Virus record (IMG/VR): IMGVR_UViG_3300021597_000002
Coordinates: 14,303 to 78,302 of that record
Strand: one strand, 5' to 3'
Length of the DNA: 64,000 nt
From: a virus
The notes beneath the pieces are model-generated. The model had not been told where the DNA came from. It saw only the letters and a list, made by a program, of their open reading frames with translations, and searched no databases. Positions 309 through 58,219 of the stretch are shown here, piece after piece (positions within the stretch are counted from its first letter, which is position 1; every line of letters begins with the position of its first letter). The position numbers and the translations under genes were made by a program.

Positions 309-480
309 GGCTTCGCATCACCCTATACGATCGTAAAAAACTATCATCATGATGGGTAAAAACGATCGATCTCGCAGCAACAGGGAAATATTGCGAACTT
401 TGTGTGCTCATGGCTTCACGAACGTAAAAACTATCATCAAGACGAGTAAAAACGATCGATCTCGGAAAAACAGGAAAACA
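298..480. repeat. Two imperfect ~80-90 bp direct repeats (298-390, 401-480) covering the promoter and start codon of the leftward gene
   Basis: TGTGTGCTCATGGCTTC...CGTAAAAA(A)CTATCATCA...GTAAAAACGATCGATCTCG...AACAGG occurs twice. Confidence 0.9.
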
Positions 481-637
481 ATGTGATATTTTGTTGCTTT
501 GTTTTGTTTATTTGCTCGTTGTGACAATTACAGGCATTTAAATTACAACACCACCTTGTTTTGATGGGCTTCGCTAATTGCTTTAAGTGAGTTGTGTAAA
601 TTAGATAAGGTTTTACTTTTGTAAAACATATTTTTGT

Positions 638-657
638 TGTTATACTTCGGTATAACA
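638..657. promoter_or_regulatory. Palindromic TA autoregulatory operator overlapping the -10 element
   Basis: TGTTATAC-TTCG-GTATAACA just upstream of the antitoxin gene; contains TATACT. Confidence 0.7.
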
Positions 658-679
658 CAGAGAAGAAGGAAACCAACAC

Positions 680-937
680 ATGACCGCTGTTGTAATTCGC
701 CAGTCTGGCGGCGCTAACATCGTTAGCATCCCTAAAACCATTGTTAAAATGCTTAGCTTGCACGCTGGATCAAAACTGGACCTATCCGTTCAGGATAACA
801 GAATCGTGCTAACTCCAGTTGAGGAAGAGCTAACGCTGGAAGCCTTACTCGCTGAAAGCCCAAAAGAGTGCTTTGCCATTACCGATGAAGACAGAGAATG
901 GATTAATGCTAAGCCTGTTGGCAAGGAAGTGATTTGA
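680..937 (+). CDS. mazE: AbrB/MazE-family antitoxin
   Basis: IRQSGGANIVSIPK AbrB motif, TLEALLA, C-terminal DREW..KPVGKE; overlaps the toxin start. Confidence 0.9.
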   Translation: MTAVVIRQSGGANIVSIPKTIVKMLSLHAGSKLDLSVQDNRIVLTPVEEELTLEALLAESPKECFAITDEDREWINAKPVGKEVI

Positions 938-1266
938 TGTACGTACCAGATAAAGGAGACATTGTTTCACTCGACTTTGATCCGAGCGCAGGAAAGGAAA
1001 TCATGAAACGTCGTCCTGCGTTTGTGATCTCTCGTAAAATGTTCAATGAACACACTGGATTTGCTGTTGTAGCTCCAATCACTAGCACAGTGAGAGGTAT
1101 GAAGCTGGAAGTCGTTTTGCCTGAAGAGCTATCGACACAAGGCGCCATCCTCATTCACCAAGTTAAATCTCTCGATTTCTCTAACCGTCAGGTCAAATTC
1201 ATAGAGAAAGCCCCACAAGCAATCACCGACAAAGCCACTGAGCTTACAAAAGTGATTATTTCGTAA
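934..1266 (+). CDS. mazF: PemK/MazF-family endoribonuclease toxin
   Basis: YVPDKGDIVSLDFDPSAGKEIMKRRPAFVIS...VAPITS...QVKSLD. Confidence 0.93.
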   Translation: MMYVPDKGDIVSLDFDPSAGKEIMKRRPAFVISRKMFNEHTGFAVVAPITSTVRGMKLEVVLPEELSTQGAILIHQVKSLDFSNRQVKFIEKAPQAITDKATELTKVIIS

Positions 1267-1280
1267 TAAGTGGTCGCGCT

Positions 1281-2615: not shown

Positions 2616-2630
2616 GGGCGCAAAGCCCCT

Positions 2631-2978: not shown

Positions 2979-3055
2979 GTCCGTTCCTTTCTACTCGATA
3001 AAACGGACTTAGGGTGGCATTGCGCTCACCCTGTCGCCACAACAAAACATTATAA

Positions 3056-3481: not shown

Positions 3482-3497
3482 TCCCTTTTAACCTCCT

Positions 3498-4839: not shown

Positions 4840-4937
4840 AATCCCTAATCCTTGTATTGATTTACATTAAATATAGCACTTATTAAGTATTAGTTAGATA
4901 CCTATCTAACACTATTTAAATATTAGTTTAATATCTT

Positions 4938-6297: not shown

Positions 6298-6948
6298 TTA
6301 GGCAGGTAAAACATGGTAATCGGACACGGGACCAGACGGCAATGCCCCCACAACCGGAATACGGCTCAAATGGGTTTTCAATGTCTCCCGTAAGGCATAC
6401 CCCGCCCCCATGGTATTGACGATCACCAAATCATAACCGCCCTGTTCGTACTGATCTTGAATCCGGCATGTGGCATCGAGAACGGTTTCACTGTCTTGTA
6501 TTTCTGCCAGTAACGCCCGTTTAGCACGTAATACCGACGCCATATCACGCACATCAATGGATAAATATTGCTTCTCATTGTTCCCTTTCCGAAATAACAA
6601 AAAGGCTTCACCAGAACGAAGTGGAATATTATTAATGACAGGCTGAGACACAAACCAATAACCGACAATCTTTGAAATGGAATAAAACAACATGAGAAAC
6701 ACTGACAGGCTTGATATTAAGTCATAGCCTAAATCAACACTCCATAATAATTGCTTTAATGGCTCCTTGTCGGGAATGAGAAATAAAGCCAATGCCATGA
6801 CCAGCAAATAAGAAAGACTGAACTCTTTAAACAGCTGGAACGACTTCACTTGTTCTTTGTTGCCAAACAAACCCACACACAAATAGACGCTCAATGTCAT
6901 GAAAAACCATGACATCAGACAGAATGAAATGACCTGAAGTATACTCAT
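6298..6948 (-). CDS. Membrane protein (about 3 TM) with a soluble C-terminal domain
   Basis: Three hydrophobic segments; late-type promoter at 6980-7024; terminator hairpin at 6256-6280. Confidence 0.7.
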   Translation of the reverse strand: MSILQVISFCLMSWFFMTLSVYLCVGLFGNKEQVKSFQLFKEFSLSYLLVMALALFLIPDKEPLKQLLWSVDLGYDLISSLSVFLMLFYSISKIVGYWFVSQPVINNIPLRSGEAFLLFRKGNNEKQYLSIDVRDMASVLRAKRALLAEIQDSETVLDATCRIQDQYEQGGYDLVIVNTMGAGYALRETLKTHLSRIPVVGALPSGPVSDYHVLPA

Positions 6949-7024
6949 CGTGATTCCCTATATTGACGATATCTTAGCCAATATAGGCGGATTGACCGCC
7001 TATCCGTACAACACAACTTTGTTG

Positions 7025-7501
7025 TCAAAGCCCGAGCAATTCTGCCGCTTGGGTCTCGGTTAGCTTGAGCTTGTATTTGGGATTCAAGAGTGCCCGAATG
7101 GCAAAGCTATTGTCTCTGTAGTTGCCTTTTGCGATCTGCACTCGGTATGCCTGCACCTCAGCCCACTGGCGATAAGGGCGCACCAACAGATACAGCAAAA
7201 CATGAAGAGCGGGGGCTAATCCGGCAATCACAGTGCTGGCGATCATCAAAACAGGATCGGCATAGAAGAAATGCAGCCCTGTCCAGCCAACGACTGACAG
7301 TGGTAAAAACAGCATCCACCATTGCTTTACATGGCACTTTTCATGCTCAAGCAAGCCGATATCATGCTCTTTACCTTTACGAAGGGTGATAATAAATAGA
7401 CGGGCGTTACCTGCTTGCCACGATGGCAGTTTGTCAGTGTAACGAACGAAGTACCAGCATTGGCTGAGTTTTGCCTTTAGTGAGGCGAGGAAGGTTTTCA
7501 T
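7025..7501 (-). CDS. Membrane-associated zincin-like metallopeptidase
   Basis: LLEHEKCHVKQW (HExxH), two hydrophobic segments, downstream WAEVQAY glutamate; late-type promoter at 7533-7577. Confidence 0.65.
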   Translation of the reverse strand: MKTFLASLKAKLSQCWYFVRYTDKLPSWQAGNARLFIITLRKGKEHDIGLLEHEKCHVKQWWMLFLPLSVVGWTGLHFFYADPVLMIASTVIAGLAPALHVLLYLLVRPYRQWAEVQAYRVQIAKGNYRDNSFAIRALLNPKYKLKLTETQAAELLGL

Positions 7502-7581
7502 AGATGCTCCTAAGAGTTAAGTGAACATGCTCATTATTCACCGCCGCCATTTAGCGAGCATCTATACAAAAATATCAGTGG

Positions 7582-8007
7582 TTAGAGTACTTCATCGTCC
7601 GTTAAACAGTACGTCATGAAGCCGGTATCGTCTTCGGTGTAACCAACAACTTTTTCATTCGTCACTAAAGCAAAATGCGCAGCCAGTGCCGCTCTATCCT
7701 CTGTTGGCATTAAGCTTAGATACTCATCTTCTGACAGCACCATGTGTTTAGTGTCTGGTCCCTCTGTTGCCACTAGGTACACCTGACCACGTTCCAGCGA
7801 CTTAAAGACATCCAAATATTGCTGTTCACTTTGAATGTACTCAATCAATAAAGGCTTAACGCCATCAATGATATTTTTTGCCGGTGCTGGCGAATGGGAA
7901 ACGGGCGTTTTATGCGTTGCCTTTGCTTTCTTCCTCGCCTGACGGCGCTTGTTCTTCTGTGCTTGCTTAACTGACATACAAGATCCTTTCTTTGCTTTAA
8001 GTATCAA
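7582..8007 (-). CDS. Hypothetical protein with a very basic N-terminus (likely start MSVKQ)
   Basis: ORF track; AAAGGA RBS before the internal ATG. Confidence 0.65.
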   Translation of the reverse strand: MILKAKKGSCMSVKQAQKNKRRQARKKAKATHKTPVSHSPAPAKNIIDGVKPLLIEYIQSEQQYLDVFKSLERGQVYLVATEGPDTKHMVLSEDEYLSLMPTEDRAALAAHFALVTNEKVVGYTEDDTGFMTYCLTDDEVL

Positions 8008-8059
8008 TCTAATACTTACTCGGTGTTATTTATATACTTAATAGGTGCTCAATTTGGCT

Positions 8060-11327: not shown

Positions 11328-11383
11328 CGTTCATCTTAGTGCGGTCACTACGCAGCCAACCACAACAAAAAAATGTTGGATAT

Positions 11384-11446
11384 AAGAAAGCCCACTCACA
11401 AGAGCGGGCTTTGTCTTACACCGAGTTGAAAGAAGGAAGCTTTCAC
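11384..11446 (-). ncRNA. Candidate small RNA 1 (~60 nt) with an anti-Shine-Dalgarno-like seed
   Basis: TAACA-N6-TGTTG-N23-TACTAT promoter (11452-11496), then GCTTCCTTCTTTC, then the AAAGCCCGCTC-TTGT-GAGTGGGCTTTCTT terminator. Confidence 0.55.
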
Positions 11447-11629
11447 AAACGATAGTACGGACGCTTATGCGCTGGTACTACAACATTTTCTTGTTATCCT
11501 CGCCGCCTTACTAAGCCACACAATGGCGCAGCCATTGCCCGTAATTTAAACGATTAGGACCATTGTTCCTGTGTAGTTAGCATGAGTATTTTTTACACAG
11601 GGTTATCCCCTTAATTTGGGGATAACCGC

Positions 11630-14516: not shown

Positions 14517-14948
14517 CTACTGTGCTGCCGCTGCTTCAGCAATACAGTGATCGCACTTTGCTAGTAATTCATTTTCTTGAAGTAACCTCTTGTTTATCTC
14601 CTCCAATTTCCCTAATCGCTGAGACATTTCAGTAACTTGGTTTTCCAACTTACTGCGCTCTCGCTCCCATTCTCTGCGCTCACTTTCCAACTGCTTTGAA
14701 TACAGGTCCTCAATAGCCTTAACACGTCTATCAAGGTCTTCCTGCAACTGCTTCATAACCTTTTGCTGTAACTCCACAACAGACGTAGCCCCTTGAATCA
14801 TGACCTCATCAGCCCGTTTCTCTTCGGTGGCGGCTTTGGCTTCATCAAGCGGCTTTTCCTGCCGTTTCTTCATAAAGTCCCAAAAACCAGCCCCAAGAAC
14901 GGCAGTGATCACGGGCACTAGGTAGTCTTTAAGTTCAGTCAACGCCAT
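14517..14948 (-). CDS. Single-TM coiled-coil protein of the lysis cassette (holin/antiholin-like)
   Basis: N-terminal hydrophobic helix followed by a long coiled coil; position between spanins and pacA. Confidence 0.55.
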   Translation of the reverse strand: MALTELKDYLVPVITAVLGAGFWDFMKKRQEKPLDEAKAATEEKRADEVMIQGATSVVELQQKVMKQLQEDLDRRVKAIEDLYSKQLESERREWERERSKLENQVTEMSQRLGKLEEINKRLLQENELLAKCDHCIAEAAAAQ

Positions 14949-16273: not shown

Positions 16274-16587
16274 AAGCCCTCCGATTTATTAACAAAAAGA
16301 CAGCGTTAGCTGAGCCTGTAGTTTGTTTCGACGGGGGATTTATCGCATCAACACGTTTTTATTGACCTGCGGCGGACTAGAGCGTGAATCCTCCTACACA
16401 ACAGATTCACTCAGGCTATGCAAAGCCACGCCACGTAAGGGTTTGAGGAAATAAGAAGCAAAACAGAGATTACGCGCCAGTCTCATTTTTTATCTGGCTT
16501 TTCTGGTGAAATTTAGGCATAAAAAAACCAGCTTAATGCTGGCTTGGTGTAATATGCGCTGCGTTTATATAAGACTAGGAGGAACCA

Positions 16588-23763: not shown

Positions 23764-24951
23764 TTAGAACGGGAATCCCTGTTTCTTTAGCCAGTCGTGG
23801 TACTCGCTAAGGGCTTCTTTCATCTTGTGTTCGACGTGAGTATGGATATAAGTCTTATCCAGCTTGCTAAGAGCATGGTTCAACAACATTTCGCCCACCA
23901 TGTAATCCACACCAAGATCAGCCCAGACCGTACGCGCTACTTTTCGTAAGTCGTGCGCTGTCCAATTACTGGCTGAAATGCGCTTAATTTGAGTACTCGC
24001 GGTACTAGCAGGAACACATTGACCACTACGATCATCGTTAGGGAATAGAAATTGCCCTGTGTAACCCTTGGATTTTTGAGCATTCCGGTAAGCATCAAGC
24101 AAAGCTTTAACTGGCTCAGTCAAAGGTAAGCGGTGCGACTGCTTCGTTTTGGTGTGCTCTGCAGGTAGGTACCAATAATCACCGTCTATATGGGACCACT
24201 TAGCCTGACGTGTTTCGCCTATACGGGTACCAAATAGCAACATCATGAAAATCAGCATTCTGGTGCTGTAGTGACAATCCACCAGCGAAGAAAGTACCGC
24301 TGGAATATCCGACGCTCTGATTTGCGCATCCTTGGGATTGATGCGTTTTTGAATGAAATCAGTGAACTGAAGACCAGCCAAAGGATTGGTACTAATACGG
24401 TTTTGCTTGGAGGCAAGCTTAAATGCCGCTTTCAGTGCGGAAAATATCAATCTGACGTTAGATAAGGAGTATTTACTTTGAAGGCGCCAGATAAGCGCAT
24501 CGTCTATGCAAGCATGGTTCAACTCATCAATCAGCTTATCACCCAGCATAGGGATCAGGTGCTTATTGATAACGGACTTCACTGTGGCTTTACGCTTTTT
24601 AGATAACTCACGATCTGATTGCGCTCTATCGCAGTACCACTCAAGCAGATCAGAAACGTTCTGGAAGCCGCTGATCTCGATATTCGCTTCAGGGTTCAGC
24701 GTTAACTCCATCACTATGCTAGGCAAACGCTCTTTTACCAGTGATACAGGAACCGCCGGATAACCACCTAGTGGGTGATATTTCTTACCTTTTCTCAGAT
24801 ACCAAGTGCCAGTTTCTAACCCTTTATGCGGACGCAACAATACCGTGGGCTTGGACGAAACTTTGATTTCGTAACCCTCGGCGGTTTTTAGCGCTCGCTT
24901 AACGGATGATTCGGAAAAACTGACTGTAAGTGTCTGCATTAAGAGTCCCAA
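23764..24951 (-). CDS. Phage integrase-family tyrosine recombinase
   Basis: GTRIGE, EHTKT, HDLRK, LLNH, TYIH all intact. Confidence 0.9.
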   Translation of the reverse strand: MGLLMQTLTVSFSESSVKRALKTAEGYEIKVSSKPTVLLRPHKGLETGTWYLRKGKKYHPLGGYPAVPVSLVKERLPSIVMELTLNPEANIEISGFQNVSDLLEWYCDRAQSDRELSKKRKATVKSVINKHLIPMLGDKLIDELNHACIDDALIWRLQSKYSLSNVRLIFSALKAAFKLASKQNRISTNPLAGLQFTDFIQKRINPKDAQIRASDIPAVLSSLVDCHYSTRMLIFMMLLFGTRIGETRQAKWSHIDGDYWYLPAEHTKTKQSHRLPLTEPVKALLDAYRNAQKSKGYTGQFLFPNDDRSGQCVPASTASTQIKRISASNWTAHDLRKVARTVWADLGVDYMVGEMLLNHALSKLDKTYIHTHVEHKMKEALSEYHDWLKKQGFPF

Positions 24952-25013: not shown

Positions 25014-25110
25014 ATTTAGATATATATTGGCGTCGTTAGCACGAAGAGAGCTAACTGTCTCGGTGACGTTAACACCAGATTTTCTAACTATCGACAACAG
25101 GAAAATGTTG

Positions 25111-29142: not shown

Positions 29143-29388
29143 ATGACCAATAACGAAAAACTCAAGATCATTCAGAAACACTTCAAGCTTAAAGCGCAAG
29201 ACGTGGCTGACATTTGTTACAAGACAAGTGTTAACACTATTTGGGCATGGCGAACAACCCCAGACAGTGTTCGCTTCAGAACAATGAACGATGGTGAATA
29301 TGCGCTATTGGTTAATTGGCTGGTAAAAAACGAACGCATTGTCGATGAATCTGAACTTGACGAACTCTTTCAAGAAGACACCAATTAA
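29143..29388 (+). CDS. Small HTH DNA-binding protein
   Basis: LKAQDVADICYKTSVNTIWAW; preceded by a degenerate CCTGTAC palindrome. Confidence 0.65.
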   Translation: MTNNEKLKIIQKHFKLKAQDVADICYKTSVNTIWAWRTTPDSVRFRTMNDGEYALLVNWLVKNERIVDESELDELFQEDTN

Positions 29389-29435
29389 GTATCTAACGGG
29401 TATTAATAGTATACCCGTTAGATATTCATTCGACA

Positions 29436-30518: not shown

Positions 30519-30547
30519 GGCATAGCCCTCCCTTAACAATCACATTA

Positions 30548-30564
30548 TAGGCACATAGTTCCTA
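30548..30564. promoter_or_regulatory. TAGGAAC-N3-GTTCCTA-type operator overlapping TATAAT
   Basis: TAGGCACATAGTTCCTA; related copies at 39235-39251 and 11555-11571. Confidence 0.65.
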
Positions 30565-30916
30565 CAAAGTCAGCTGACGTTCTAATCCCTCCCCTATAGC
30601 CTTGCAGGACCTTTGCAATAGATAGTGATGCAATGGCATTCATGAGCATAGAAACGTTGAATAGCGAGGCACTGACACAGCCTAACAAGACGAAATCACA
30701 AAAGATCCTATTAGATCTCTATCTGTATTTGGATGAACTGTTTCTTTCCATCAATTTAAAAATAAAAAAAATCTCTCTTTATTATTTCTTTATTTAATAG
30801 GTTATAAGATGGCTTATTAAATGGTTATATATGGTTATAAGATGGTTGTTGGGCTTTAAAGTTGGACCAAACAAGAAACGTAAGTTCATGTTTTAACAAT
30901 GAAATAAAATCAATCT

Positions 30917-33331: not shown

Positions 33332-33748
33332 TTACTTTTTTTGAGTTGCAGCTGCAAGCTCTGCTTCCAACTGGCTTAGAATGGTGCGTTCTGAGCGCAG
33401 CGTTATTTGAGCACTGGTTAGGCGCTCACTTTGCTGTTCGATTTCGCGGCGAAGTTGTTCAGGATCACGAGGCGCAGTTTGGGAAATAAACTGATGCTTG
33501 TTTTCTCGAAGCTGTTCAAGGAATGGGCTATGACAGTCTTTATTGGCAGCATCAATATTAATCGACTCATAAGCTTGAGGATTAACACGACGGCAATACT
33601 TGTGAAGGATTTCGCGGCAAGCGGCATACTTCATACCGTTTACTGCCGCGACATCTGAGGTTTTAGCGCCCTTTAGAATGGCGCACGCAATTTGTTCTTC
33701 TTTTCTGAGTGAGATTTCACGCTCTTGATTTGTCTCGGTCTTGTCCAT
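33332..33748 (-). CDS. HTH protein with a C-terminal coiled coil; paralog of 50794-51351
   Basis: AILKGAKTSDVAAVNGMKYAACREILHKYCRRVNP aligns with SIFLGARIHDAAVMISVADRTMRDRFLTYCKHANP. Confidence 0.7.
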   Translation of the reverse strand: MDKTETNQEREISLRKEEQIACAILKGAKTSDVAAVNGMKYAACREILHKYCRRVNPQAYESINIDAANKDCHSPFLEQLRENKHQFISQTAPRDPEQLRREIEQQSERLTSAQITLRSERTILSQLEAELAAATQKK

Positions 33749-33936
33749 TTCGATTTCAGCCTTCCAACGTCACCGCTAAGCCGTGGTACCGCGCTCTACT
33801 TCAAAAGCGCTTTTGGTTGCCACAACAAACTTTTATCTTTTTGTTGTGCACTGTTTACCGTTTTTAGCGATGGCGAGAAACAACAAAAAAATGTTGTTTA
33901 ATCTTTTCTCGACTGGATCAAAACTTCGCAGATCAA

Positions 33937-34233
33937 TCAGGTTTCAAACTCGATATCTCCAGACTCAACACCTTTAAGCACTTGCTTACCTTTTTCGGTG
34001 AGAGTGATCAAAGTTGGAGTACGGCGCATGGCTGGTATCTGCTTTCTTTCAACAGCGACCAAGCCTTGCTCTTTTAGCGACTCAAGTATCTGGTTTTTCT
34101 CTGCGGCTTTGATACCAGCATTGACATTAAGGCGTCGAGTGAGGTCGGTCATGGCAATGGTGTTCTTTTTCTCTTTCTTGAGAATAACAAGAACACGTAC
34201 CTCAGCGTTTTTTAGCATGTTGATATCCATCAA
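33937..34233 (-). CDS. Winged-helix (MarR-like) DNA-binding protein
   Basis: MTDLTRRL...LESLKEQGLV...RRTPTLITLTEKG. Confidence 0.75.
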   Translation of the reverse strand: MMDINMLKNAEVRVLVILKKEKKNTIAMTDLTRRLNVNAGIKAAEKNQILESLKEQGLVAVERKQIPAMRRTPTLITLTEKGKQVLKGVESGDIEFET

Positions 34234-36458: not shown

Positions 36459-37505
36459 TCACGCTTTTTCTTCAATCTCTTGAGCAGCTTCTTCAGATTC
36501 TCTCAGTTTTGAAAAGAACCCACTGCCAAAATCGTGCCCTTCAGTACCAATCCTCACCAAATGTTCTTTTAGATTATTAATTTCCTCAATGGACGGAATG
36601 CATCGCTTATCAACAACGTCGGCAAATGTCTTTAATGCATCCTCGTAGGTCAGATTTTTCTCAACCTTAACGCCGACCTCTTTTTCCGGCAATTGCCACT
36701 TAAAAAGAAACTTAATCCCGACTACTTTTCTACCTTCTTTGATGTAAGAGAATCCGTAGTTCCCTGTTTTGTCATCGATCAGGAATCTAATATGGGACTC
36801 TTTCTCATCAATTTCTTGAATCGCTGGTTTAATGATCCGCTTGATAAAGTTAGCGTTTACAGCATAAGTCTTTTTCAATAGCGTCCCTTGCCTATCTAAC
36901 AAACCAAAGAAACCATGGAGGTCTTCAATCGTTTGTGGGTGCAGCTCAGTGTTAGGGGATTTGAACCGGCAAAGCATGGTATACAATCTTTTGCCATGCT
37001 CCGTTTTTATTTGTCGGAATGATTTATGTGGAATTTGAGCGTGACCTTGGGATATCCCTAAATACTCTGTGATCAGCTCATCATTAGGTTTGATGGTTAG
37101 CGTGCCATGTTTGTACTTAACTCGCTTAAACAAAGGGATAAAGTCGAAAGAATCACCTTCCTGTATCACACCTATTTTCTTACCTGCCAATCGTTCTGAC
37201 GGCTTATAGAGGATGTTATAAAGGTCTTCCTTTTCCACGCAAAACCAGTCGCAAAGCACTTTGCTTTTAAACTCATAGCTAGGTGATATCGGTGTTTTCC
37301 CTGCCATAAAGTCTTCCCACTGGTCTTTATGCAACCGTGACAGTAATAGAGCAAAAATATCGTGCTCCACTGGTGATAACGACAGTCGGGAAAAGACAAG
37401 CGCATGAGATTTTTTGAAAAAGTCGCTATGGATATCGGCAGACACTGCACTTGTGATTGTTCGTTCTTTTGGCAACTTTTGCTCAGGGGCGTCATTGTCA
37501 TTCAT
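36459..37505 (-). CDS. repA: Rep_3-family plasmid replication initiator
   Basis: FKKSHALV..LSPVEHDIF, KRLYTML, IIKPAIQEI, KEGRKVVGIKF; iterons upstream. Confidence 0.88.
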   Translation of the reverse strand: MNDNDAPEQKLPKERTITSAVSADIHSDFFKKSHALVFSRLSLSPVEHDIFALLLSRLHKDQWEDFMAGKTPISPSYEFKSKVLCDWFCVEKEDLYNILYKPSERLAGKKIGVIQEGDSFDFIPLFKRVKYKHGTLTIKPNDELITEYLGISQGHAQIPHKSFRQIKTEHGKRLYTMLCRFKSPNTELHPQTIEDLHGFFGLLDRQGTLLKKTYAVNANFIKRIIKPAIQEIDEKESHIRFLIDDKTGNYGFSYIKEGRKVVGIKFLFKWQLPEKEVGVKVEKNLTYEDALKTFADVVDKRCIPSIEEINNLKEHLVRIGTEGHDFGSGFFSKLRESEEAAQEIEEKA

Positions 37506-38016
37506 AACTATTACCTTTTACTCCGGTGCTTCTTGCTAACTATGACTCTTTGTTGCTAAGGGGCTTTTAATTATTACCCTTTACTCCGGAAAAGCCGGAG
37601 TAAGAAGTCATTTATTGTGATTTATTGCCTTTAATACCGGAGTAAGAAGTAATAGTAAAGGTTTTATAGAGAGTTTTGAGCGCCAAAGCGGAGTAAAAGG
37701 TAATAGTTATAGAAAAAATCAACGAATCAAGGACATAAATAGCCATTTATCAACAAACTTACACCTCAAGCCGGAGTAAAAGGTAATAGTTACCGGAGTA
37801 AAACGATCTATCTAGCGGAGTAAAAGGTAATAGTTACCGGAGTAAAGTGATCTAGTTACCGGAGTAGAACGATCTAGTTACCGGAGTAAAAGGTAATAGT
37901 TTGTTCTGTAAGCTATTGACCCTAAAGGTTTTTTAGCGCCCTATATATCTTTATAGATCTTTATAGATCTTCATAAATAAAATATAACTATTATATAAGT
38001 GTGGATTTGTGGATAA
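37505..38016. repeat. Plasmid origin: six tandem 22-bp iterons (37771-37902), five dispersed or inverted copies, AT-rich AGATCT repeats and a DnaA box
   Basis: CCGGAGTAAAAGGTAATAGTTA consensus; TGTGGATAA at 38008-38016. Confidence 0.92.
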
Positions 38017-38091
38017 CTAATTTAGTCACCTCCTTAGCCTAACATGTCAAACGCCCCTAACTAGATGGCAACTTCCAAGTGATAACAAATA

Positions 38092-38141
38092 AGTATCTAC
38101 CTGATACCTGTTAAGTGTCGTTGTGGTGTTTTATGGGTATC
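38092..38141. promoter_or_regulatory. Hexamer array (5 units, 11-bp period) upstream of parA; putative parS/operator
   Basis: AGTATC, GATACC, AGTGTC, GGTGTT, GGTATC at 38092, 38103, 38114, 38125, 38136. Confidence 0.7.
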
Positions 38142-40334: not shown

Positions 40335-41991
40335 TTTCCTCTCCCATCAGCTCTGCAATGCAGCTGTAAATCATGGTTTTCAGTTGATTATGGCTATCTG
40401 GATCGGAAACCGAGTCCAGAACCTTGTCGACTTCATCCTGATCACCATCTTTCGCAGCCTCTATCAGTTGCTTAAATGTTTCTTCACTCACACGCAAAAC
40501 ATCAGTAAAGAGCCAGTTTGAAGTCTGTTTAAAGTTGAACTTGTTGAGTTCGGGATCGAGCATCTGCATTAGCGTAACAACTGACGTTGCGAAGTTAATT
40601 CTTGACTCCCTCGCCGTCGCTTCTTCACGTTCTAATACGTTATTTAAGCTGTTAAACTCGATACGCCATGGTTTGTCTGTTTCCGTATAAACCTTGCCCC
40701 ATTTCATCAACACATGGATTTCACAGAGCTTTTCTGCACCAGCCTTGATCGCTCGGCGGATTAGATTAGCCTTGATTGCAGCAACCATAGATTGCGTCCA
40801 CCAGCCACCCTCACCAAGACCACCACTCATATCTTCAGTAAAGCCAACGAGTGATTTATCCACGCCTAGCGCACTACACAGACGATTGACATGGAAGTTT
40901 ACGTCTTCGATATGGCTAATATTGACATCCGACTGCTCGGTTTGAATGTTTACTTGACCTGAACCGTCAGCGGTAACTGGCAGAATATGGTTGTCTATTG
41001 TTGAAATATGCCCACGTTTAGCTGAGCGCTTAGCCGACAGGTTCAACTTTCGCTTTAACGCCCCCAAAATGGTGTTGTAATACTGAGCTGCTAGAGTTGG
41101 GTTTTTCTTACCGGTCTGGATTGTGATGAATCGGTCTCGCTTCGCAGCGTTCTTACGTGCTGAGTTGAGTGACAATATGGCTTCATTTAAATCAACCCAT
41201 GGATCATAAGCTGAGCGTAACAGACTGGAACCGTAGTCCTGTGTTTCGACCGGCTCTTCATTCAGGTAGTCATCATCATTAATATCAAATGCCAATGGGT
41301 TTAAACGCACAGGTTCAATAAGCGTGCTGCCGTGACCATCCCATTTAGGGATTTTAAATTGGATAAATTTCCACGGCTCCATAAGCTCAACAAGCCCTTT
41401 CTTCTCAAGGCTTCGTTGGTATTTTGAAGTGTAGCCACACAATAATCCTGCTCGCTCATAGCAACGGATATGAGCAGGGTGTGTATAGTGGTCAAATCGA
41501 ATGTGAGTGATCCCTTTTTGTGGCTCGATATAGGGACGCACATAACTCAGACCGTATTTAGCGGCTTGAAAAGCTATTGCTTCGGCATTTTCGTTTAACC
41601 AGCGACCGATAGTGTTTCGCAGGTCCTTAACAATTTTGTCTCCCTCCCCTTCTTTGGTAGAGGCAATAAACAAAATTTCTTGAGTGTCGGTTTTGGCAGA
41701 CAGAGCATTGGCAACATGCATCTTTAGGGCGCTGTCGATAGTCGGATCGACTGCCATTTCTTCATATCTCAAATAACCAGCACGACGATTGCGAGGGAAC
41801 GGCTCAATCAGCTTTTCGGTTTCTGACTCAGAGTTAGCTCCCTCTTTGCCTAGTAAATCATCAAGCTTGCCTGCATCCTCATAGTCGAAACCTGATTCTG
41901 CCAGCTCTAAATGACCGCTATGGTCATCGTCTTGCTGACCTTGGAACATTTGTGAGAGTTGTTGCCACCACCTCTTTTTTTTCTCAGCCAT
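40327..41991 (-). CDS. prt: Portal protein (P1 Prt-like)
   Basis: EEMAVDPTIDSAL, ETQDYGSSLL, MSGGLGEGGW. Confidence 0.88.
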   Translation of the reverse strand: MAEKKKRWWQQLSQMFQGQQDDDHSGHLELAESGFDYEDAGKLDDLLGKEGANSESETEKLIEPFPRNRRAGYLRYEEMAVDPTIDSALKMHVANALSAKTDTQEILFIASTKEGEGDKIVKDLRNTIGRWLNENAEAIAFQAAKYGLSYVRPYIEPQKGITHIRFDHYTHPAHIRCYERAGLLCGYTSKYQRSLEKKGLVELMEPWKFIQFKIPKWDGHGSTLIEPVRLNPLAFDINDDDYLNEEPVETQDYGSSLLRSAYDPWVDLNEAILSLNSARKNAAKRDRFITIQTGKKNPTLAAQYYNTILGALKRKLNLSAKRSAKRGHISTIDNHILPVTADGSGQVNIQTEQSDVNISHIEDVNFHVNRLCSALGVDKSLVGFTEDMSGGLGEGGWWTQSMVAAIKANLIRRAIKAGAEKLCEIHVLMKWGKVYTETDKPWRIEFNSLNNVLEREEATARESRINFATSVVTLMQMLDPELNKFNFKQTSNWLFTDVLRVSEETFKQLIEAAKDGDQDEVDKVLDSVSDPDSHNQLKTMIYSCIAELMGEENV

Positions 41992-42136
41992 GATTCTCTC
42001 GCCTGTTAATTAACATCGAGAGAGTAACGAGCAGTGGTTAGAGGTGCATCAACACAGATTTGTTTGAGTGGGACTTGGCGGGTATCTTGTAAGTATTTAA
42101 AGGGTATCGTATTGATACCCTTTATTTCATTGCGCT

Positions 42137-42553: not shown

Positions 42554-42640
42554 GGTCGTAATTCCTTGCCATAGGGTACCTACAATATAGCAGATACCCT
42601 ACAAGTGTTAAATAAGTATTTATCTGATACCTGTTAGGTG

Positions 42641-45600
42641 TTAGGCGATAATCTCAAACACCTCCTTAACATCAACGCTCACAGGGAAATACCACCAGCT
42701 GCCATCCCAATCACCCTCTGCGGTACAGAACTTAGCACCAAAGCGGTTTTTAAGGATATCTTTAGCAGCAAACAGCTTACCGGCTTTACCATTTTCATCT
42801 TTCAAGAAGAAATACTGAAATGCTGACAATGAACGAGCGCGGTATCGACCATTACGAGGAATAGAAACATCTTTGTAGTTATATCGTGCAGTCACACCGA
42901 TATCTTCAAATCCTTTTTTCACTTCCGCTGGTAGCTCTTTAAAGGCTGGGTTCTTTTTTAGCTCTTCAAGTTCAGCGTCGGCAGCCTGACGTTTCGCGGT
43001 TTCTGCCTCATCAAGTAGCTTGTTTTCAAGTCCTGAAATGAACTCTCTCACCCAACGATTAATTTCCATTCGGTTATCCCCAAGTTCTGCGGCTTTATCT
43101 TCTGCAGATTCTTGGAAGTCCTGACGAGCCAGACGATATGCTTGGTGCTTAGCTATTGCTGCTGGCAGTCCTTTTAACGAAGAGGACAATTGAATGCCTT
43201 CTAAGAGCGTTGGTTGATAGTCCATCCAAGCCTTATCACACATTGCTAGGACATCGGCTTGTGAGGCTTTTTGTCCGTATTCCGCAATTTCTTGATCATA
43301 AAAGTCACCAAAGAATGGTTTTACAACTTCTCGCCATGCATACATTGGCTTATCTTCTCTGCGAAGTTTTAAGTAATGCAATGCAATCTCACGCTTCAAA
43401 GCGTTGTCACTGACGTCAGGGTAAACCAACATTTCTGTTGGATGCTGATCTGCGCTGGCGAGAGTAAGCTCTCCATTGACTCGGAATAGGAAGTTACCGT
43501 AACCCTGCAGCTTGATGTCATCACGGTATTTTACAAACTGATCTTTTTTCAGTTTTGATAGCGTGTTGTAGGTATAAGTGATAGATAAAATCTGTTTCAC
43601 CCTTACCTCATCATCTGACAAAGAAACATGCTTTAATCCGTCTGGCATGGAGTCCAAATCCGCTTTCATGAACTCCCCATTGCGGCGCCCCCACCAATAA
43701 TAGGAAACATCCCCAACAGGCACAGAGTAATGCACTGAGCGTGAAGATTGTTCAACCTGTTCAATGCGAAGAATTGCCCCGAAATCCGTTTCAAAATAAG
43801 TGCCAACCGTAAGCACCGAACCGTCACGAGCAACAATGGCATTTTCAGGGTTTTCGATAATCGTACTGTCAAACGGAAGTTCGCCAGCACTCGCTTTTTG
43901 TTTTAGGAACGTCATCCGTTGTGATAGTCGAGATTCAAGCTTGGCTTTATCTTCTTCCCATTTCGCATCATGATCTTGAAGGGATTTGTTAATTCGAGCC
44001 AATGCTTGTTCTGCTTTGCTACTATCTTCTCCTTTTTCTTTAATGCGAGAAAGCGATGCTTGAGCTTTGTCTTTACGCTCAACCAGTCGATTGTAGTCTT
44101 CAGCCTTATCCGCTTCCCAGCTGGCTAACTGACTGCGTAAGCCAATTACTTGAGACAGGTCTACAGCGCATTTCAAATCAGACTTACGCTTACGCTCTGC
44201 TTGTTTTTGGGCTAAGCGTTCCATCCGTTTAGCTTTGGCTGCTTCAGGATCGGCTTCAAACATGTCTAGGTAGTCATCGTTATCTATCGCATTGCCATTG
44301 ACTGCTTCTGATTCTGTTCCGTTGAACAAATCTCGCATCCAACTCTTTTTCTTATTGAGTAGATCAAGGCGGTAGCCATCAAACGAGCCTTTACCAAGGT
44401 AGTAGTACAGGCTTACTTTTGATGCTGTATTCCCTTGTCTTACCCCTCGTCCATTGCGTTGCTGAATAGAGGCAGGTGTCCATGGCAATGTTAGATGGTG
44501 AATTGCACTGGTCCCTTTTTGTAGGTTTACACCAACTTCAGCTTTTTTGTTACAGATAACGATTTTAATATCACCGGCATTGTAAGCATCAGCAATTCGT
44601 TGAAGCTTTGCCCCTGCGGCATCAGAGCCATTGATAATGCCGATCTGCTTTTCATCCAGACCAAGCTGGTTAACGATGATTCGCTTTAACTTATGGTGCT
44701 GAGTTTTTTCCTCGGTAAAGATAATTTGCTTACCTTTAACTTCTAACTCCGCTTTTAAGTTAGCGACCAGCTTCGCATACTTAGGCGTTAATGGATGGCT
44801 TACGTCGGCAGGCTTGATAGCCGCATCATTTAAACGGTCAAGTACAGCCTGTTCGTACACATCAGGAACCACCAGCACAATAGAGTCGGACTCGTCCTTT
44901 CGTTGATAATCCAGCTCAATAGAGACTTTACGTTTAACCTCTTCGCCATCTTCAGTTTGTTCGATGCGCTCTGCTTCGATAGATGCAGGAAGGGCAGCGA
45001 TAAGCTGATCAACCGCTTTGGCTTTTGACGCTGGGAAAGTAAAGGTCATGGCCTGGTTGAACAGATCCATGTCTGTTGTCACCTTATCCATGTCTCGCAT
45101 AACAGCGAATAGAGCGCGAGCATTCGCACTACGCTGGCGAGCCGGCTTGCTGGCTTCTTTTGCTTCTTCACGTAATGACTCATATGCCGATTCTTGATCT
45201 GCGGTCATGTCGACACTTTCATGAGTTTCTGGGGCATCTGGTAGCGCTAAGCTTACGTCTTCTGCGTTACGCATTAAGGTGTAACGGTGGAATAGGTTTC
45301 GTAATCCATCTAAGTTTTGGAAGCCGACTAATCCATCCTTTTGTACGATTTCACCTTTTACCGTCATTTTCTCAACGGTTTCAACCTTGCCGAACACACG
45401 AACAAAATCATCTGCAGTATAAACACCAAACTTTTCAAACTCTTCAACGGGTAATACCAGAGAAAGCATATTGAAAATCTCAAGGGGAGAGTTGGTTACT
45501 GGTGTCGCAGATAAAAGAACAGGTCCACGACCTTCGTTTTGATCACGTAGATATGCCATCTTCATTGCCATGTCGATAGCACGTTGTGATTCAGTCGGGT

Positions 45601-49687: not shown

Positions 49688-49882
49688 TCAGCGTATGGCG
49701 GGAGGTTCGCCATCCTCCTTTTGATGGGCAAACATTAATGTTCATCGGGAGGGTAACAAGCTCAATGAATACAGGCATCCACATAAAATTGTCAAAAGGT
49801 GGTCTACAATAAAAATTAACATAATAATTAACGTATAAATTACGCTTTCAGTTGGCGGTCGAATAGATATGTAGAGGACGGA

Positions 49883-50635
49883 ATGACCGCAAATAAGTAT
49901 AAAGACTGCTTAAAGAAGAATAAGCATCTATGCCAACGGTGTTACCCACGAAAGGACACGTCCATTCATTATGGGATTCATGCGGGACAGTTCGTGCTGT
50001 GTGATTGTCTGATTGCTGAATTGATGCGATATCCTGGTCCTGCCGGCATTAAAGGGCTTAATTCAGAATTTCTCATAATGAACTGCCATTATAGGGAGTT
50101 GGTGGATTTACCTTGTGGGTATAGCTTTTACGGTAAGCGACTTGAAGAAATGCCATCCTGCGTTCGTCATGAGACTGCCAAGAGCTACGACATGCAAGAT
50201 CGCCTCATTATGGAAGAGCGTCAGGCGATGATTTTTGCAGATTGCGACTACTTTTTCGGAGACAGTATCAAATTGCATACTGTTGAAACTCAGAAATACC
50301 CCCTAATTGACCTAAGCGGAAATTTGATCGGGATCGCTTTTTTGATAAATGATTTTTTCCGTCCTATGGATTCTAGACATGTAAAGCTGCCTGACTTTGC
50401 TGACCTTTCCACTCCTCTTAGCATGGCGGAATCTCGTCTCGTATTTTGTAAAAAAATGGGATTGTCTGACAAAGAATCCGCAGAAAGACTAGGGATTACG
50501 CCATCTACCGTGCGATCTCTCAAAGCTCGTATCCGTGATAAGACTGGTTACAGCGTGTCAGAACTTCGTACTTTATTATCCAGCCACTCATCATTTCGAC
50601 TTATCACCAAGAGCGATTCATTCAGGATACGCTAG
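49883..50635 (+). CDS. PAS + LuxR-HTH regulator, VqmA-like
   Basis: PGPAGIKGLNSEF..NCHYRELV..EMPS..SYDMQDRLI..QKYPLIDLSGNLIG (PAS) and LSMAESRLVF..GLSDKESAERLGITPSTV..RIRDK (LuxR HTH). Confidence 0.85.
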   Translation: MTANKYKDCLKKNKHLCQRCYPRKDTSIHYGIHAGQFVLCDCLIAELMRYPGPAGIKGLNSEFLIMNCHYRELVDLPCGYSFYGKRLEEMPSCVRHETAKSYDMQDRLIMEERQAMIFADCDYFFGDSIKLHTVETQKYPLIDLSGNLIGIAFLINDFFRPMDSRHVKLPDFADLSTPLSMAESRLVFCKKMGLSDKESAERLGITPSTVRSLKARIRDKTGYSVSELRTLLSSHSSFRLITKSDSFRIR

Positions 50636-50638: not shown

Positions 50639-50658
50639 TGTGGACACTTTTGTCTACA
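50639..50658. promoter_or_regulatory. 20-bp palindrome, candidate class II activator site
   Basis: TGTGGACA-CTTT-TGTCTACA, centred at -43.5 relative to a CATACT -10 at 50680-50685. Confidence 0.55.
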
Positions 50659-50727: not shown

Positions 50728-50747
50728 TACTGTATAAATAAACAGTA
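50728..50747. promoter_or_regulatory. LexA (SOS) box
   Basis: TACTGTATAAATAAACAGTA = CTG-N10-CAG consensus. Confidence 0.9.
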
Positions 50748-50793: not shown

Positions 50794-51351
50794 GTGCTAG
50801 GTGATTACATCCATACAGTTTTAGCCCACATTGAAAATACGGATTTTGGGACAGGATATCTGGAATCAGAAGGACGCAAGAGCGAAGCAAATGCCACCAG
50901 CCACCAGCAAAAAGGAGGCAAGCAAGAATTTATTCCGTGTGGGGATAAGGCTAACTTCCCATACAACGAAGAAACACGAAAGGCGGTCCTGTCAATCTTT
51001 CTCGGGGCGCGTATTCATGATGCTGCTGTCATGATTAGTGTTGCAGACCGAACGATGCGTGATCGCTTCCTGACTTACTGTAAGCACGCAAATCCAGATC
51101 AGTTTGAGCGGATTTATGAGCGAGCAGTCCATCAAGGATATTCAACGCCACCAGTCGAGCTATTTCAGCCTTACGTGTTGGATTTCTTTACACAAGCGGA
51201 TCTGCCTGTATTGCACAGTGAGGCTAAGGTTTTACCGACAGCCAAAGAGCTGGCTGAAGAAAGCCTAGAGAAAGCGAAGCTGGAACTCTCCCTAGCTCGC
51301 ATTCGATTGAGTGTGGTAGAAGGTATGACAAGAATTTTAGGGTGCGAATAA
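50794..51351 (+). CDS. SOS-regulated HTH protein; paralog of 33332-33748
   Basis: LexA box and AAGGAG RBS upstream; HTH-like GARIHDAAVMISVADRTMRDRF; terminal coiled coil. Confidence 0.72.
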   Translation: MLGDYIHTVLAHIENTDFGTGYLESEGRKSEANATSHQQKGGKQEFIPCGDKANFPYNEETRKAVLSIFLGARIHDAAVMISVADRTMRDRFLTYCKHANPDQFERIYERAVHQGYSTPPVELFQPYVLDFFTQADLPVLHSEAKVLPTAKELAEESLEKAKLELSLARIRLSVVEGMTRILGCE

Positions 51352-53445: not shown

Positions 53446-53450
53446 GCTTA

Positions 53451-55588: not shown

Positions 55589-55686
55589 TGTGATTGTGTT
55601 GTTAACAGTTCGATGGTAGAGCGCAGGGGGTAGGATCGCATCAACAGGAAAATTTACTCCCTCGTGTGAGAGAGTAAATAGGAGGA

Positions 55687-56241
55687 TTACAGACCAAGGT
55701 GCTTTTTGAGCTGGTTTACTTCTTCTTGCAGTTCTAGTGTTCGGCGCCCATTGTCGATGGTATACGCTGCCAGCTCTGCATAATCTGAGGCTGAAACTGG
55801 TTTAGATGGCAATGCTTGCTCAATGCTGTCTACAGGGACAGATGTTGCCCCTGACGGAAGCGTAATCTTAGCCAACATGATAGCGTTACTCGGCACGCTA
55901 TCTCGAACGTAAATACCGACAGAAGACGCTTGGTGAAGTGCATATTGTGCTTCGAGCACCACATATTGCGTTTTACCTGCAGTCAATGTTACCTGCTTGG
56001 TAACATTGTTTGGCATTCTTGCTGTCAGTGAATAAGTGCCGACTTCAAGAACCGCAATATTCTGATCACTTCCTGAGACTTCGACGGTTAGCCCCGTCTT
56101 TGGTTTGACCGAAAAGCCTGAGTAAACCCCTTTAGGTAGTAACCCCTGTAACTTTTGGTTCATGGACGCACCCGAGAAGTTTTCACGCCATGCTGTGTCT
56201 ACTCTCAAGTCGTCCATTGGCTGTTGTGGGTATGTATTCAT
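55687..56241 (-). CDS. Tail-fibre N-terminal anchor (P1 gpS N-terminus-like), short
   Basis: WRENFSGASMNQKLQGLLPKGVYSGF; follows gpR; only 184 aa. Confidence 0.7.
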   Translation of the reverse strand: MNTYPQQPMDDLRVDTAWRENFSGASMNQKLQGLLPKGVYSGFSVKPKTGLTVEVSGSDQNIAVLEVGTYSLTARMPNNVTKQVTLTAGKTQYVVLEAQYALHQASSVGIYVRDSVPSNAIMLAKITLPSGATSVPVDSIEQALPSKPVSASDYAELAAYTIDNGRRTLELQEEVNQLKKHLGL

Positions 56242-56244
56242 CCA

Positions 56245-56682
56245 TTACTCTCCGGAAATAGGGAAGTTAACGTATGGGTGTGTGTTAATGCCCTCTTCAG
56301 GTGTTACCCAATCTGGCAAATCAATACTGACGGCAACCAGGTCCCCGTCATCGTCATATAAGCCGGTTTGGCTGTATTGCTTCGGCTCTGATAAGGTATT
56401 TTCAGGCATGATACAGCGGAATAGTAATCGCCCATTAGCCCAAACAACATCTTCTGCAGGATTAATGGTCCCTTCAAAGAAAACGTTTTTGATATCGTTT
56501 TCTGCTGCATTGAATGGTGAGAGTGCTGGCGGGGTTTTGCTGTCATCCACCAGCAACGGATCATGACCAAACTTAAATTTAACGATCTTGAACTGTTTCG
56601 CCAGTCCTGCAATTGAGAGAGCATTTTTTTCGTAAAAACGAGGCAGTAGCTCTGCAATCTGCCATGGTTGGTTTGTCGACAT
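56245..56682 (-). CDS. P1 gpR-like tail fibre/baseplate protein
   Basis: AELLPRFYEKNALS..FKIVKFKFG...GLYDDDG; gene order. Confidence 0.7.
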   Translation of the reverse strand: MSTNQPWQIAELLPRFYEKNALSIAGLAKQFKIVKFKFGHDPLLVDDSKTPPALSPFNAAENDIKNVFFEGTINPAEDVVWANGRLLFRCIMPENTLSEPKQYSQTGLYDDDGDLVAVSIDLPDWVTPEEGINTHPYVNFPISGE

Positions 56683-56686
56683 AGCG

Positions 56687-58108
56687 CTAATTCCAAAGTG
56701 GTGTGTCTAACGGTGCGAAATCAGCTGGGATTTCGTCAAACCCCAGCCATGGATTTTGGTTTATCTCTGTTGGTTGCTTTAACTCAAAAGGCAAAGAGGG
56801 GTACTCTCTGACCGTGCATTCAGCTTGAGCGCTGTAAGCGATGGAACAAGATGACTGCGTTTGCTTCGTTTGAATACAGCCATGCTGGCTCACTTCCGTT
56901 TGAAATGAGCGTAACTGGATTCGATGCTGCTTAAATGGCGGAAGTTTATCGCCTTCCTTTCCAGATAATGCTGCAGTGCCGTCTTGTGTCTTCACAAACA
57001 AATCAAGGGACCAATCCGCCCCCAGTTGATAACTCATCCAGACAGGTCTAATCGTCATTCGACTTTGCCCGTGTAAAGGATCGTTTGTTGGAACGCTGTC
57101 TGCTGGCATCGCATCAAATTGATAGTGCATATTGAACGTCAAGCATGGATAACGGACGGCTGATAGAGCACCACCATCCATAGGCATAAACCCATGCTCA
57201 ATAGGAACAGAACGCTCAATCGTTGATATTTCCTGCAACGCCCCGATTACGTCGCCTTCTTTCCCCGCAAGTGGTACACGGCGATCGCCCAAATCAACGA
57301 ACAAATCAAGGGACCATGAAATATTGCCCAGAGAAAAGTCAACTTGGCTGGTTGTTACTCCACGAACATGCTCGACATATAAAGGGCTTTCATCTAACCA
57401 AGGTACGTCAGCTGGTCGCTCATCAAAAGAAGCCGTTAAGCGGTAGAACATACAGCCGCCTTTTTCGGCTATGGTCTGGCGCTTAACGTGATAACCCAAC
57501 GGCTCATAGTTGAAATTGATGGTTAGAATGAAATATTCACCGTCATACACGATATGAGAGGGGCGTAATCGTTCAATTTCTCGTTGAGCTATGGCAATAA
57601 AAGTTTCTTTAGCCATGCCCAATTGATGAAGATGCTTGAGATCAACTGCAATCTTGCCCCGAGAGGTCATCCAGAAATCATCTAGCTCCCACTGTTTTAG
57701 TTGGATCTCTTGCTCTGTATATAGATTGTCTAAGGTGTACGCTTGACTGCGGTTGGAGTAGAGAGGTTCCCATGTCACACCAAGCCCTGCGAAGTTCACG
57801 CACAAGGCATTCACGAAAGGAACGATAGTGTCTTTTTCATGAATGTTGGCTCGCTGCCAAGAAATAGACAGCCGCTTACCTGAAGAGTCGATGGGTAAGG
57901 CAGTATCAAAATAATCACCAAACTCGGCAATTTTCTTATTTAGATGTTCATCGTTGGCAGTGAAGATGTTTTTACTATCTTCAAATGTTTGGAGTTCACT
58001 GAAAAAATAGGTATCCCAGTATTCTTCCAATGCTTCAGCAAGCGCTACCCATTGGGGAGAGCCTTGTTTGCTCTTTGTAAGACGCTCAACTAACCATTTT
58101 TCAGCCAC
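56687..58108 (-). CDS. P1 gp16-like baseplate protein with internal repeats
   Basis: WLVERLT..KQGSPQW, VTWEPLY, FWMTSRG, FDEIPAD. Confidence 0.75.
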   Translation of the reverse strand: MAEKWLVERLTKSKQGSPQWVALAEALEEYWDTYFFSELQTFEDSKNIFTANDEHLNKKIAEFGDYFDTALPIDSSGKRLSISWQRANIHEKDTIVPFVNALCVNFAGLGVTWEPLYSNRSQAYTLDNLYTEQEIQLKQWELDDFWMTSRGKIAVDLKHLHQLGMAKETFIAIAQREIERLRPSHIVYDGEYFILTINFNYEPLGYHVKRQTIAEKGGCMFYRLTASFDERPADVPWLDESPLYVEHVRGVTTSQVDFSLGNISWSLDLFVDLGDRRVPLAGKEGDVIGALQEISTIERSVPIEHGFMPMDGGALSAVRYPCLTFNMHYQFDAMPADSVPTNDPLHGQSRMTIRPVWMSYQLGADWSLDLFVKTQDGTAALSGKEGDKLPPFKQHRIQLRSFQTEVSQHGCIQTKQTQSSCSIAYSAQAECTVREYPSLPFELKQPTEINQNPWLGFDEIPADFAPLDTPLWN

Positions 58109-58219
58109 AGGAAAACCTCACTCTAAATCTCGAATGAGGGTACGGTTTAAGGCAAGAACCCGCCACGACAAAAAGATTTTTTACCTATGGCGAGTATTTA
58201 TTAGGTGTTACATCGGTAT

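Follow-up and report, generated by a model that had tools for sequence, protein, structure and literature searches.

The DNA examined here is a window of 64,000 bp, which spans bases 14303-78302 of one contig of 78,302 bp (IMG/VR record IMGVR_UViG_3300021597_000002), and the coordinates used below are those of the window unless they are marked as genome positions. Our subject is a dyad motif that recurs along this element in front of gene blocks for the virion, for lysis and for anti-restriction functions, together with the proteins that might act on it. A tblastn comparison of all open reading frames (ORFs) with phage P1 identified 26 P1 homologues at 25-60% identity, and because of these we place the element, as a P1-like plasmid-prophage distant from P1 itself, in the p0908/pVv01 group; by its sequence it is a plasmid-prophage of Vibrio and a distant relative of P1. 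Among them are the capsid gene 23, the sheath gene 22, bplB, pmgC, tub, pmgB, bplA and gene 16, and they also include hdf, darA, darB, ulx, the portal gene, pro and pacB, as well as ban, hrdC, a Dam methylase gene and the genes for gp25, gp6 and gp5.

The closest match to this DNA is a 74-kb plasmid of Vibrio campbellii with 99.4% DNA identity, while p0908, p48/10 of V. vulnificus and plasmids of V. cholerae, V. parahaemolyticus and V. campbellii (79-97 kb) have 76-82% DNA identity to the window. Within the same group pVv01, which is almost identical to p48/10, has been reported to be a myovirus inducible by mitomycin C (PMC4132613). A further relative named in that paper, pAMBAS45 (PMC4132613), is a near-copy of p0908 with a deletion and added nothing to the comparison. 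A scan of genome contigs with the portal protein gave two close relatives and no others, viral contigs searched for related loci gave close relatives or no match and nothing more distant, and metagenome scans for the context of distant homologues gave no match. In the literature we found no paper on this motif or on the regulation of these plasmids.

A dyad motif at a fixed distance from a -10 hexamer

The preliminary description of this DNA, made from the sequence alone, had listed twelve sites of 45 or 46 bases and spoken of about 12 copies of the motif. All twelve were found at the positions it gave, on the minus strand, and over the whole 78.3-kb genome we count eight strong sites and about seven weaker or variant ones. 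The consensus is nAAyA-N6-TGTTG(A/T)(T/G)GC-N19-TAcccT, in which the promoter-proximal half is much better conserved than the distal half. The left half had already been noted as the more degenerate, and in the strong sites only two of its positions, the A's of nnAnA, are in fact constant. The box keeps a fixed distance from the -10 hexamer, with TGTTG ending 23 nt from it in nearly all copies.

The sequence TGTTG-N23-YANNNT occurs 16 times where 6.2 occurrences are expected, and CAACA-N6-TGTTG, with up to one mismatch allowed, is found 13 times where 3.1 are expected; none of 100 shuffles reached 16 for the former or 13 for the latter. A weight matrix limited to the half-sites, the hexamer and the positions flanking the proximal half was built from ten main sites of the preliminary description. 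Seven of these ten held up as strong, with leave-one-out scores of 17.6-23.0 bits (the sites beginning at 349, 3011, 16320, 42021, 49750, 55613 and 58137), whereas those at 6980 (10.3 bits), 11452 (9.7 bits) and 7533 (6.2 bits) proved to be weak. The two variant sites, at 11333 and 33852, were verified by eye alone. A site that took no part in the training, at genome positions 6781-6825 and thus outside the window, scored 23.8 bits compared with 20.0 bits for the top of 100 shuffles, and in P1, which served as the negative control, the matrix found no match of 18 bits or more. Chance or base composition as the source of the motif is excluded by the shuffles, by this held-out site and by the conservation in relatives that is described below.

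A home-made expectation-maximisation motif finder drifted to AT-rich motifs of low information and recovered the TGTTGATGC core loosely. We also considered a division of the sites into two classes, with perfect dyads serving non-structural genes and TGTTGATGC serving structural genes. Such a division would suit a regulatory cascade, and it was not adopted because the sites form a continuum.

Strong sites precede late gene blocks

The eight strong sites, seven from the trained set and one held out, are all on the coding strand with a start codon 16-63 nt downstream, and their positions confirm that the sites front late-type gene blocks in an orientation matching that of the genes. The genes of these blocks were named through tblastn against P1. 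The held-out site lies 16 nt 5' of the capsid gene and heads a block that continues through sheath, tube and tape measure to baseplate genes. Inside this long tail operon a second strong site (58137..58181; 18.7 bits) lies 29 nt 5' of the gene 16 homologue. The portal-pro block is preceded by a site 30 nt 5' of the portal gene (42021..42065; 22.5 bits). The site CAATA-N6-TGTTGCTGC with the hexamer CATCAT (349..393; 18.3 bits) lies 41 nt 5' of a gene at the position of P1 gene 26, from which a baseplate and tail block with the gp25-gp5 homologues extends as far as gp5. Further sites are found 25 nt 5' of the hdf homologue (55613..55657; 19.8 bits), in front of the hdf-darA-ddrB block, and 63 nt 5' of the darB homologue (49750..49794; 17.6 bits), in front of darB-ulx. 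Lysis and then terminase genes follow the site at 16320..16364 (19.8 bits), which heads a block encoding an 82-amino-acid protein with two membrane-like segments, an SLT transglycosylase, a spanin-like protein, the product of 14517-14948, the product of a gene at the pacA position and PacB. The remaining strong site (3011..3055; 23.0 bits) is 5' of ORF 2631-2978, which encodes 115 amino acids of unknown function. No strong site was found in front of the plus-strand operons for maintenance or early functions, namely those for partition, the methylase, the pmgS-like gene and the regulator genes.

Four of these places are shared with annotated late promoters of P1 (LP23, LP26, LPpro and LPdar), the 42021 site being at the place of LPpro and the 55613 site the counterpart of LPdar. 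The likeness to P1 thus takes in the kind of phage, the job of the sites, their places (the portal, capsid, gene-26 and hdf/darA blocks), the TAnnnT form of the -10 and the lack of a -35. The annotated P1 late promoters, however, consist of a AAGTGACTT box at -22 followed by 4 nt and then the TAnnnT -10, whereas here that box is absent 4 nt before the -10 and TGTTG(A/T)(T/G)GC stands 19 nt before it instead. The box of the present element is unrelated in sequence, lies about 15 bp further upstream and is a split dyad, so that the dissimilarity to P1 late promoters claimed in the preliminary description extends to both the sequence and the position of the box. No homologue of the P1 late activator Lpa (gp10) was detectable by tblastn of all ORFs against P1 or by phmmer and blastp of Lpa against all ORFs, although a remote homologue is possible; 14517-14948, which occupies the place of the Lpa gene, is assigned to a different PHROG family.

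Conservation of the sites in relatives

The motif was scanned in p0908, p48/10, the plasmid LJC013, a contig of V. owensii and a 77-kb plasmid found in a Xenorhabdus assembly. The motif has kept its boxes in these relatives, and orthologous sites were found in every one of them that has the corresponding gene. Over 11 orthologous groups, conservation is 0.91-1.0 in columns 35-45 and likewise in columns 2-20, which take in the two half-sites with the six bases that separate them, plus the ATGC extension, compared with 0.83-0.92 for the 14-nt spacer and about 0.8 for the upstream flank. Columns 6-8 and 35-38, which are outside the matrix, are conserved too. At the portal and darB sites of p48/10 and the Xenorhabdus plasmid the spacers have been replaced almost entirely and the boxes are unchanged, and in LJC013 an inserted methyltransferase gene comes with its own copy of the motif.

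Two of these relatives have features of their own. The Xenorhabdus plasmid is contig C4 (77,169 bp) of a Xenorhabdus bakwenae assembly, a phage-plasmid of this Vibrio group with a portal protein 88% identical; its presence there could reflect either real host range or contamination. In the LJC013 plasmid (97,344 bp) about 20 kb occurs twice, for which reason its motif sites come in pairs (for example 8252 and 85021), a repeat that may be genuine or may have arisen in assembly.

Short AT-rich palindromes with shared TGTT/AACA arms are present right 3' of three of the hexamers, at 41990-42020 (portal, TGTTAATTAACA), 49715-49749 (darB, AACATTAATGTT) and 55590-55612 (hdf, TGTTAACA). They are conserved in relatives, and may be a second control site or due to chance.

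Probable promoter geometry and mode of action

The -10 is of the TAcccT type, with columns conserved at 0.92-1.0 and conserved bases often found directly upstream of it. When a -35 was sought 16-18 bp from the hexamer, the best match to TTGACA was no more than three of six bases at every strong site. The proximal box does contain TTGATG, 20 bp from the hexamer, a distance too long for sigma-70 alone. The fixed distance between box and hexamer, taken with an assumed start of transcription, allows a class II geometry to be read from the sites. Were transcription to start about 7 nt after the hexamer, as a dyad centre of -43.5 presumes, the proximal half would occupy -40 to -32, and a dimer bound to this strong half and to the weaker distal half nAAyA could recruit the sigma-70 polymerase in class II fashion. 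We consider it likely that the sites are activator-dependent late (lytic) promoters with a dyad near -43.5, and that the activator is one or both of the two paralogous proteins discussed in the next section.

Dyad symmetry is as compatible with a repressor as with an activator, and perfect palindromes are found in front of non-structural targets (the integrase gene, the operon of one paralogue and ORF-free DNA), so that operators of a repressor silencing the lytic genes in the prophage have to be considered. The dyad, however, lies upstream of the -10 at the place of a -35, where there is no -35 to occlude, and both the better conservation of the promoter-proximal half and the near-constant spacing of 23 nt suggest a geometry of recruitment and not of blocking. 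Repression therefore seems to us very unlikely, and it is activation that we infer from the sequence. Even less probable is the explanation that an alternative sigma factor, from the phage or its host, recognises TGTTGATGC and TAcccT as its -35 and -10 across a spacer of 19-20 bp, without a separate activator. Two conserved boxes at a fixed distance would fit this, as would the asymmetry of the proximal box and its being longer than a half-site. Against it, the distal half-site takes part in the enrichment of the dyad reported above and has two invariant A's, no sigma-like gene was found among 16 products scanned, and we know of no sigma consensus sequence that matches these boxes with a spacer of 19-20 bp.

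A phage late regulon under a dyad-binding activator is a well known kind of system; what is new here is the motif, its position relative to P1, the candidate protein family and the LexA/VqmA-like wiring. The middle and late promoters of phage Mu are served by the paralogous activators Mor and C at a dyad centred at -43.5. The present system resembles them in having a dyad at about -43.5 (with the assumed start) that replaces the -35, and two small, putatively dimeric, paralogous phage-encoded helix-turn-helix proteins, but differs in the sequence of the site and in an architecture of helix-turn-helix followed by coiled coil. No Pfam match to Mor/C was obtained at E up to 0.1 or 1, and no Mor structure was among the fold matches listed. 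In class II activation by LuxR and TraR a 20-bp box is centred near -42.5. Weak fold matches of the core of one candidate, and an adjoining gene for a VqmA-like PAS receptor, recall these proteins and the VqmA-qtip system of phage VP882, although the candidate is without a ligand-binding or receiver domain and would dimerise, according to its model, by a coiled coil. Lastly, Ogr of P2 and Delta of P4 act at TGT-N12-ACA near -55, and helper and satellite transactivate each other. An upstream dyad, and small co-resident replicons with a regulator homologue and the same promoter motif, are features in common with P2/P4, but the dyad nAAyA-N6-TGTTG differs in sequence as well as in spacing and position, and satellite behaviour is a candidate property here. 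A zinc finger of the P2 Ogr type was not found in the candidate activators, which are all-helical and match no Pfam model, zinc-finger families included.

Two paralogous candidate activators

Both of our top-ranked candidates were among the regulators that the preliminary description had proposed. One is a protein of 138 amino acids (33332..33748, minus strand) with a helix-turn-helix core and a C-terminal coiled coil, and the other a protein of 185 amino acids (50794..51351, plus strand) that has the same core with an N-terminal extension and may be an activator or the trigger of induction. The two are paralogues, with 25% identity over 68 residues (E 2e-6) and a PHROG cross-hit, and in both a helix-turn-helix-like core (in the 185-residue protein GARIHDAA...DRTMRDRFLTYCK) is combined with a C-terminal amphipathic helix. 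The family is rare, with 14 matches among 1.8 billion representative proteins, and tblastn of the 185-residue protein against a phage collection gave no match. The 138-residue protein is kept in all full-length relatives examined, and its copy in the Xenorhabdus plasmid is 72% identical. In p48/10 the homologue of the 185-residue protein is annotated as two short ORFs (30187-30673), and the split may be either a frameshift or a sequencing error.

The AlphaFold model of the 185-residue protein is all-helical, with a mean predicted local distance difference test score (pLDDT) of 80. Apart from coiled coils, its core matched solely DNA-binding domains of the LuxR/NarL/VqmA type; the weak matches by VIA-align were VqmA, NarL, RhlR, DegU, RcsB, DosR and VpsT, Foldseek E-values for the core were 0.4 or worse, and the GerE Pfam model did not match the candidate activator. 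The homodimer model scored 0.63 compared with 0.02 for the best control, by a mark that is reached by 20 of 30 proteins whose solved structures are pairs of one chain and by 1 of 23 whose solved structures are single chains. At least 93% of contacts are the same between runs, with pLDDT of at least 83. The modelling indicates dimerisation via a C-terminal antiparallel coiled coil.

We give about an even chance to the activator being a member of this family; it could be either paralogue, and the two cannot be ranked. Both may act on the regulon. The 138-residue protein would be made during infection from an early-type operon, and expression of the 185-residue protein would follow either cleavage of LexA or a signal from the receptor. 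At 33852..33896, 104 nt 5' of the gene for the 138-residue protein, which heads the rdgC-trfA operon, lies a perfect dyad with a poor -10 (TAAACA; 14.1 bits), which might provide feed-forward. One dimeric activator had been proposed for the virion and lysis genes and possibly for lytic replication, but the two paralogues may divide this role between them.

Another protein could bind the late-promoter element in place of the paralogues, which are tied to the motif by association only. The alternatives include the PAS and helix-turn-helix protein of VqmA-like layout described below, a 98-residue winged-helix protein (33937-34233), a PadR protein and a host factor. Of these the PAS protein has a helix-turn-helix like that of LuxR and sigma region 4. 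Its gene is nevertheless absent from the Xenorhabdus plasmid, in which the sites are kept, and the protein has a likely site of its own in a palindrome (50639-50658) unrelated to the motif. The paralogue family, by comparison, is what the motif-bearing small replicons have in common with this genome, and we regard a binder from outside it as unlikely.

Several points weigh against the view that these sites are late promoters activated by the paralogues. We infer promoter function and the -43.5 position from sequence, with the start site assumed. The matrix was trained on sites that the preliminary description had picked from intergenic DNA, and only the site at the capsid gene, the copies in relatives and those on small replicons are independent of these picks. 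The orthologous groups were themselves chosen by score, and the conservation of the scored columns is therefore inflated. The link between protein and site is by co-occurrence only, and the two paralogues have different recognition helices. Neither a profile search against the Protein Data Bank nor a Pfam scan matched the paralogues to any family, and the VIA-align matches (Z 5.2-6.0, root-mean-square deviation 2.9-3.6 Å over 62-72 residues) are below the level that can be trusted. In addition, the P1-like Xenorhabdus plasmid has neither the gene for the 185-residue protein nor the PAS gene, darB directly abutting ddrB, and yet keeps the genome's strong late sites and perfect dyads. Because the sites are kept there without the gene, the 185-residue protein cannot be the sole activator unless one is supplied in trans.

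Possible induction wiring of the 185-residue protein gene

A consensus LexA box (CTGT-N8-ACAG; 50730..50745) lies just 5' of 50794-51351 and is kept in all four relatives checked. Directly 5' of the same gene is one for a regulator with a PAS domain and a C-terminal helix-turn-helix in a VqmA-like layout (49883..50635, plus strand), and between the two genes is the 20-bp palindrome at 50639-50658 (TGTGGACA-N4-TGTCTACA), also conserved in relatives. The palindrome and the LexA box, in series, look like a two-input induction module. The LexA box and the neighbour of VqmA layout make the gene for the 185-residue protein a natural trigger of induction, by which DNA damage, and perhaps also a small-molecule signal, could switch on the same regulon. 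A LexA-linked trigger agrees with the induction of pVv01 by mitomycin C.

The sites provide a first regulatory map for the marine phage-plasmids of the p0908/pVv01 group, in which one motif predicts the late transcription units, and they suggest that a P1-like virion module can be under a late switch other than Lpa and its -22 box. As that switch they suggest a rare DNA-binding protein family that has no name yet, one member of which is here wired to LexA and adjoined by a VqmA-like gene. The question of how the prophage is induced becomes open to reporter and binding experiments.

Small replicons with the motif and a regulator homologue

Short homologues of the paralogues (134-140 amino acids) are found mostly on contigs of 2-3 kb. 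The V. cholerae plasmid pE7G2 (2,466 bp) shares with this genome the homologue and no other item, and carries one copy of the motif, AAACA-N6-TGTTGATGC...TAGCGT, whose score of 18.5 bits is reached by 0.2% of shuffles. For the 19-kb plasmid pVpR13_19Kb of V. parahaemolyticus the overlap is limited to the homologue, one DUF4236-like protein and an integrase that is distant. Two sites, of 23.8 and 13.2 bits, stand on it with a start codon 31-34 nt downstream, and none of 600 shuffles reached 23.8; the genes behind both sites are without a counterpart in this genome. In the Xenorhabdus assembly, where the phage-plasmid lacks the gene for the 185-residue protein, a small element (contig C2; 17,536 bp) has two copies of a 139-residue homologue, an 18.9-bit site and an AAACA-N6-TGTTG dyad 58 nt 5' of a pacA-like gene.

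The regulator family and the motif may be shared by phage-plasmids and small replicons. The presence of both on tiny co-resident plasmids hints at cross-talk between helper and satellite, and it is conceivable, though on balance rather doubtful, that the two could cross-activate each other.

Two V. cholerae strains that come from different places carry plasmids of equal size (2.4 kb), pE7G2 and pSA7G3, and these are co-resident with the 80.7-kb P1-like plasmids pE7G and pSA7G2, respectively. Each of the small plasmids has four iterons and encodes, besides a regulator homologue, a protein of ribbon-helix-helix-like type; the motif scan covered pE7G2. The ends of contig C2 of the Xenorhabdus assembly form a large inverted duplication, and the contig may be a satellite or a linear element, or else an assembly artefact.

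Weaker sites and other sequence features

The weaker sites in the window are also on the minus strand. A perfect dyad, CAACA-N6-TGTTG, lies 5' of ORF 6298-6948 (6980..7024), and a weak variant with the right half TATAG lies 5' of ORF 7025-7501 (7533..7577), of which orthologous copies are present in p0908 and p48/10. Two sites were not listed in the preliminary description. One is a perfect dyad CAACA-N6-TGTTG (25066..25110; 11.0 bits) 5' of the integrase gene 23764-24951, with an identical 16-mer in p0908, p48/10 and the Xenorhabdus plasmid. The other is a weak candidate (62921..62965; 15.8 bits) that the pmgB homologue carries in its 3' end; it lies 209 nt 5' of the tape-measure gene, and orthologous copies are kept.

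The site at 11452..11496 (TAACA-N6-TGTTG ... TACTAT) faces ORF-free DNA. On its 3' side are 72 nt (11375-11446, minus strand) without an ORF that form a strong terminator-like hairpin (-30.4 kcal/mol; fold z-score -6.2), a candidate for a short RNA driven by a promoter of the regulon. An Rfam search found no family match anywhere in the window, this segment included. The nearby variant site at 11333..11378, a perfect dyad with a 24-nt spacer and the hexamer TAAGAT, has no nearby downstream ORF.

The motif finder also surfaced iterons and repeats of the GTATC type. About eight direct repeats of TAACTATTACCTTTTACTCC at 37502-37905 adjoin the replication initiator gene (36459-37505) and probably serve as iterons of the plasmid origin. 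Clusters of GTATC/GATAC-type hexamers about 11 bp apart occur at 4871-4928, 8001-8053, 29384-29430, 38088-38118, 42077-42118 and 42594-42641, one of them before parA and one just 5' of the portal late promoter, and these may represent a centromere or a repressor operator system.

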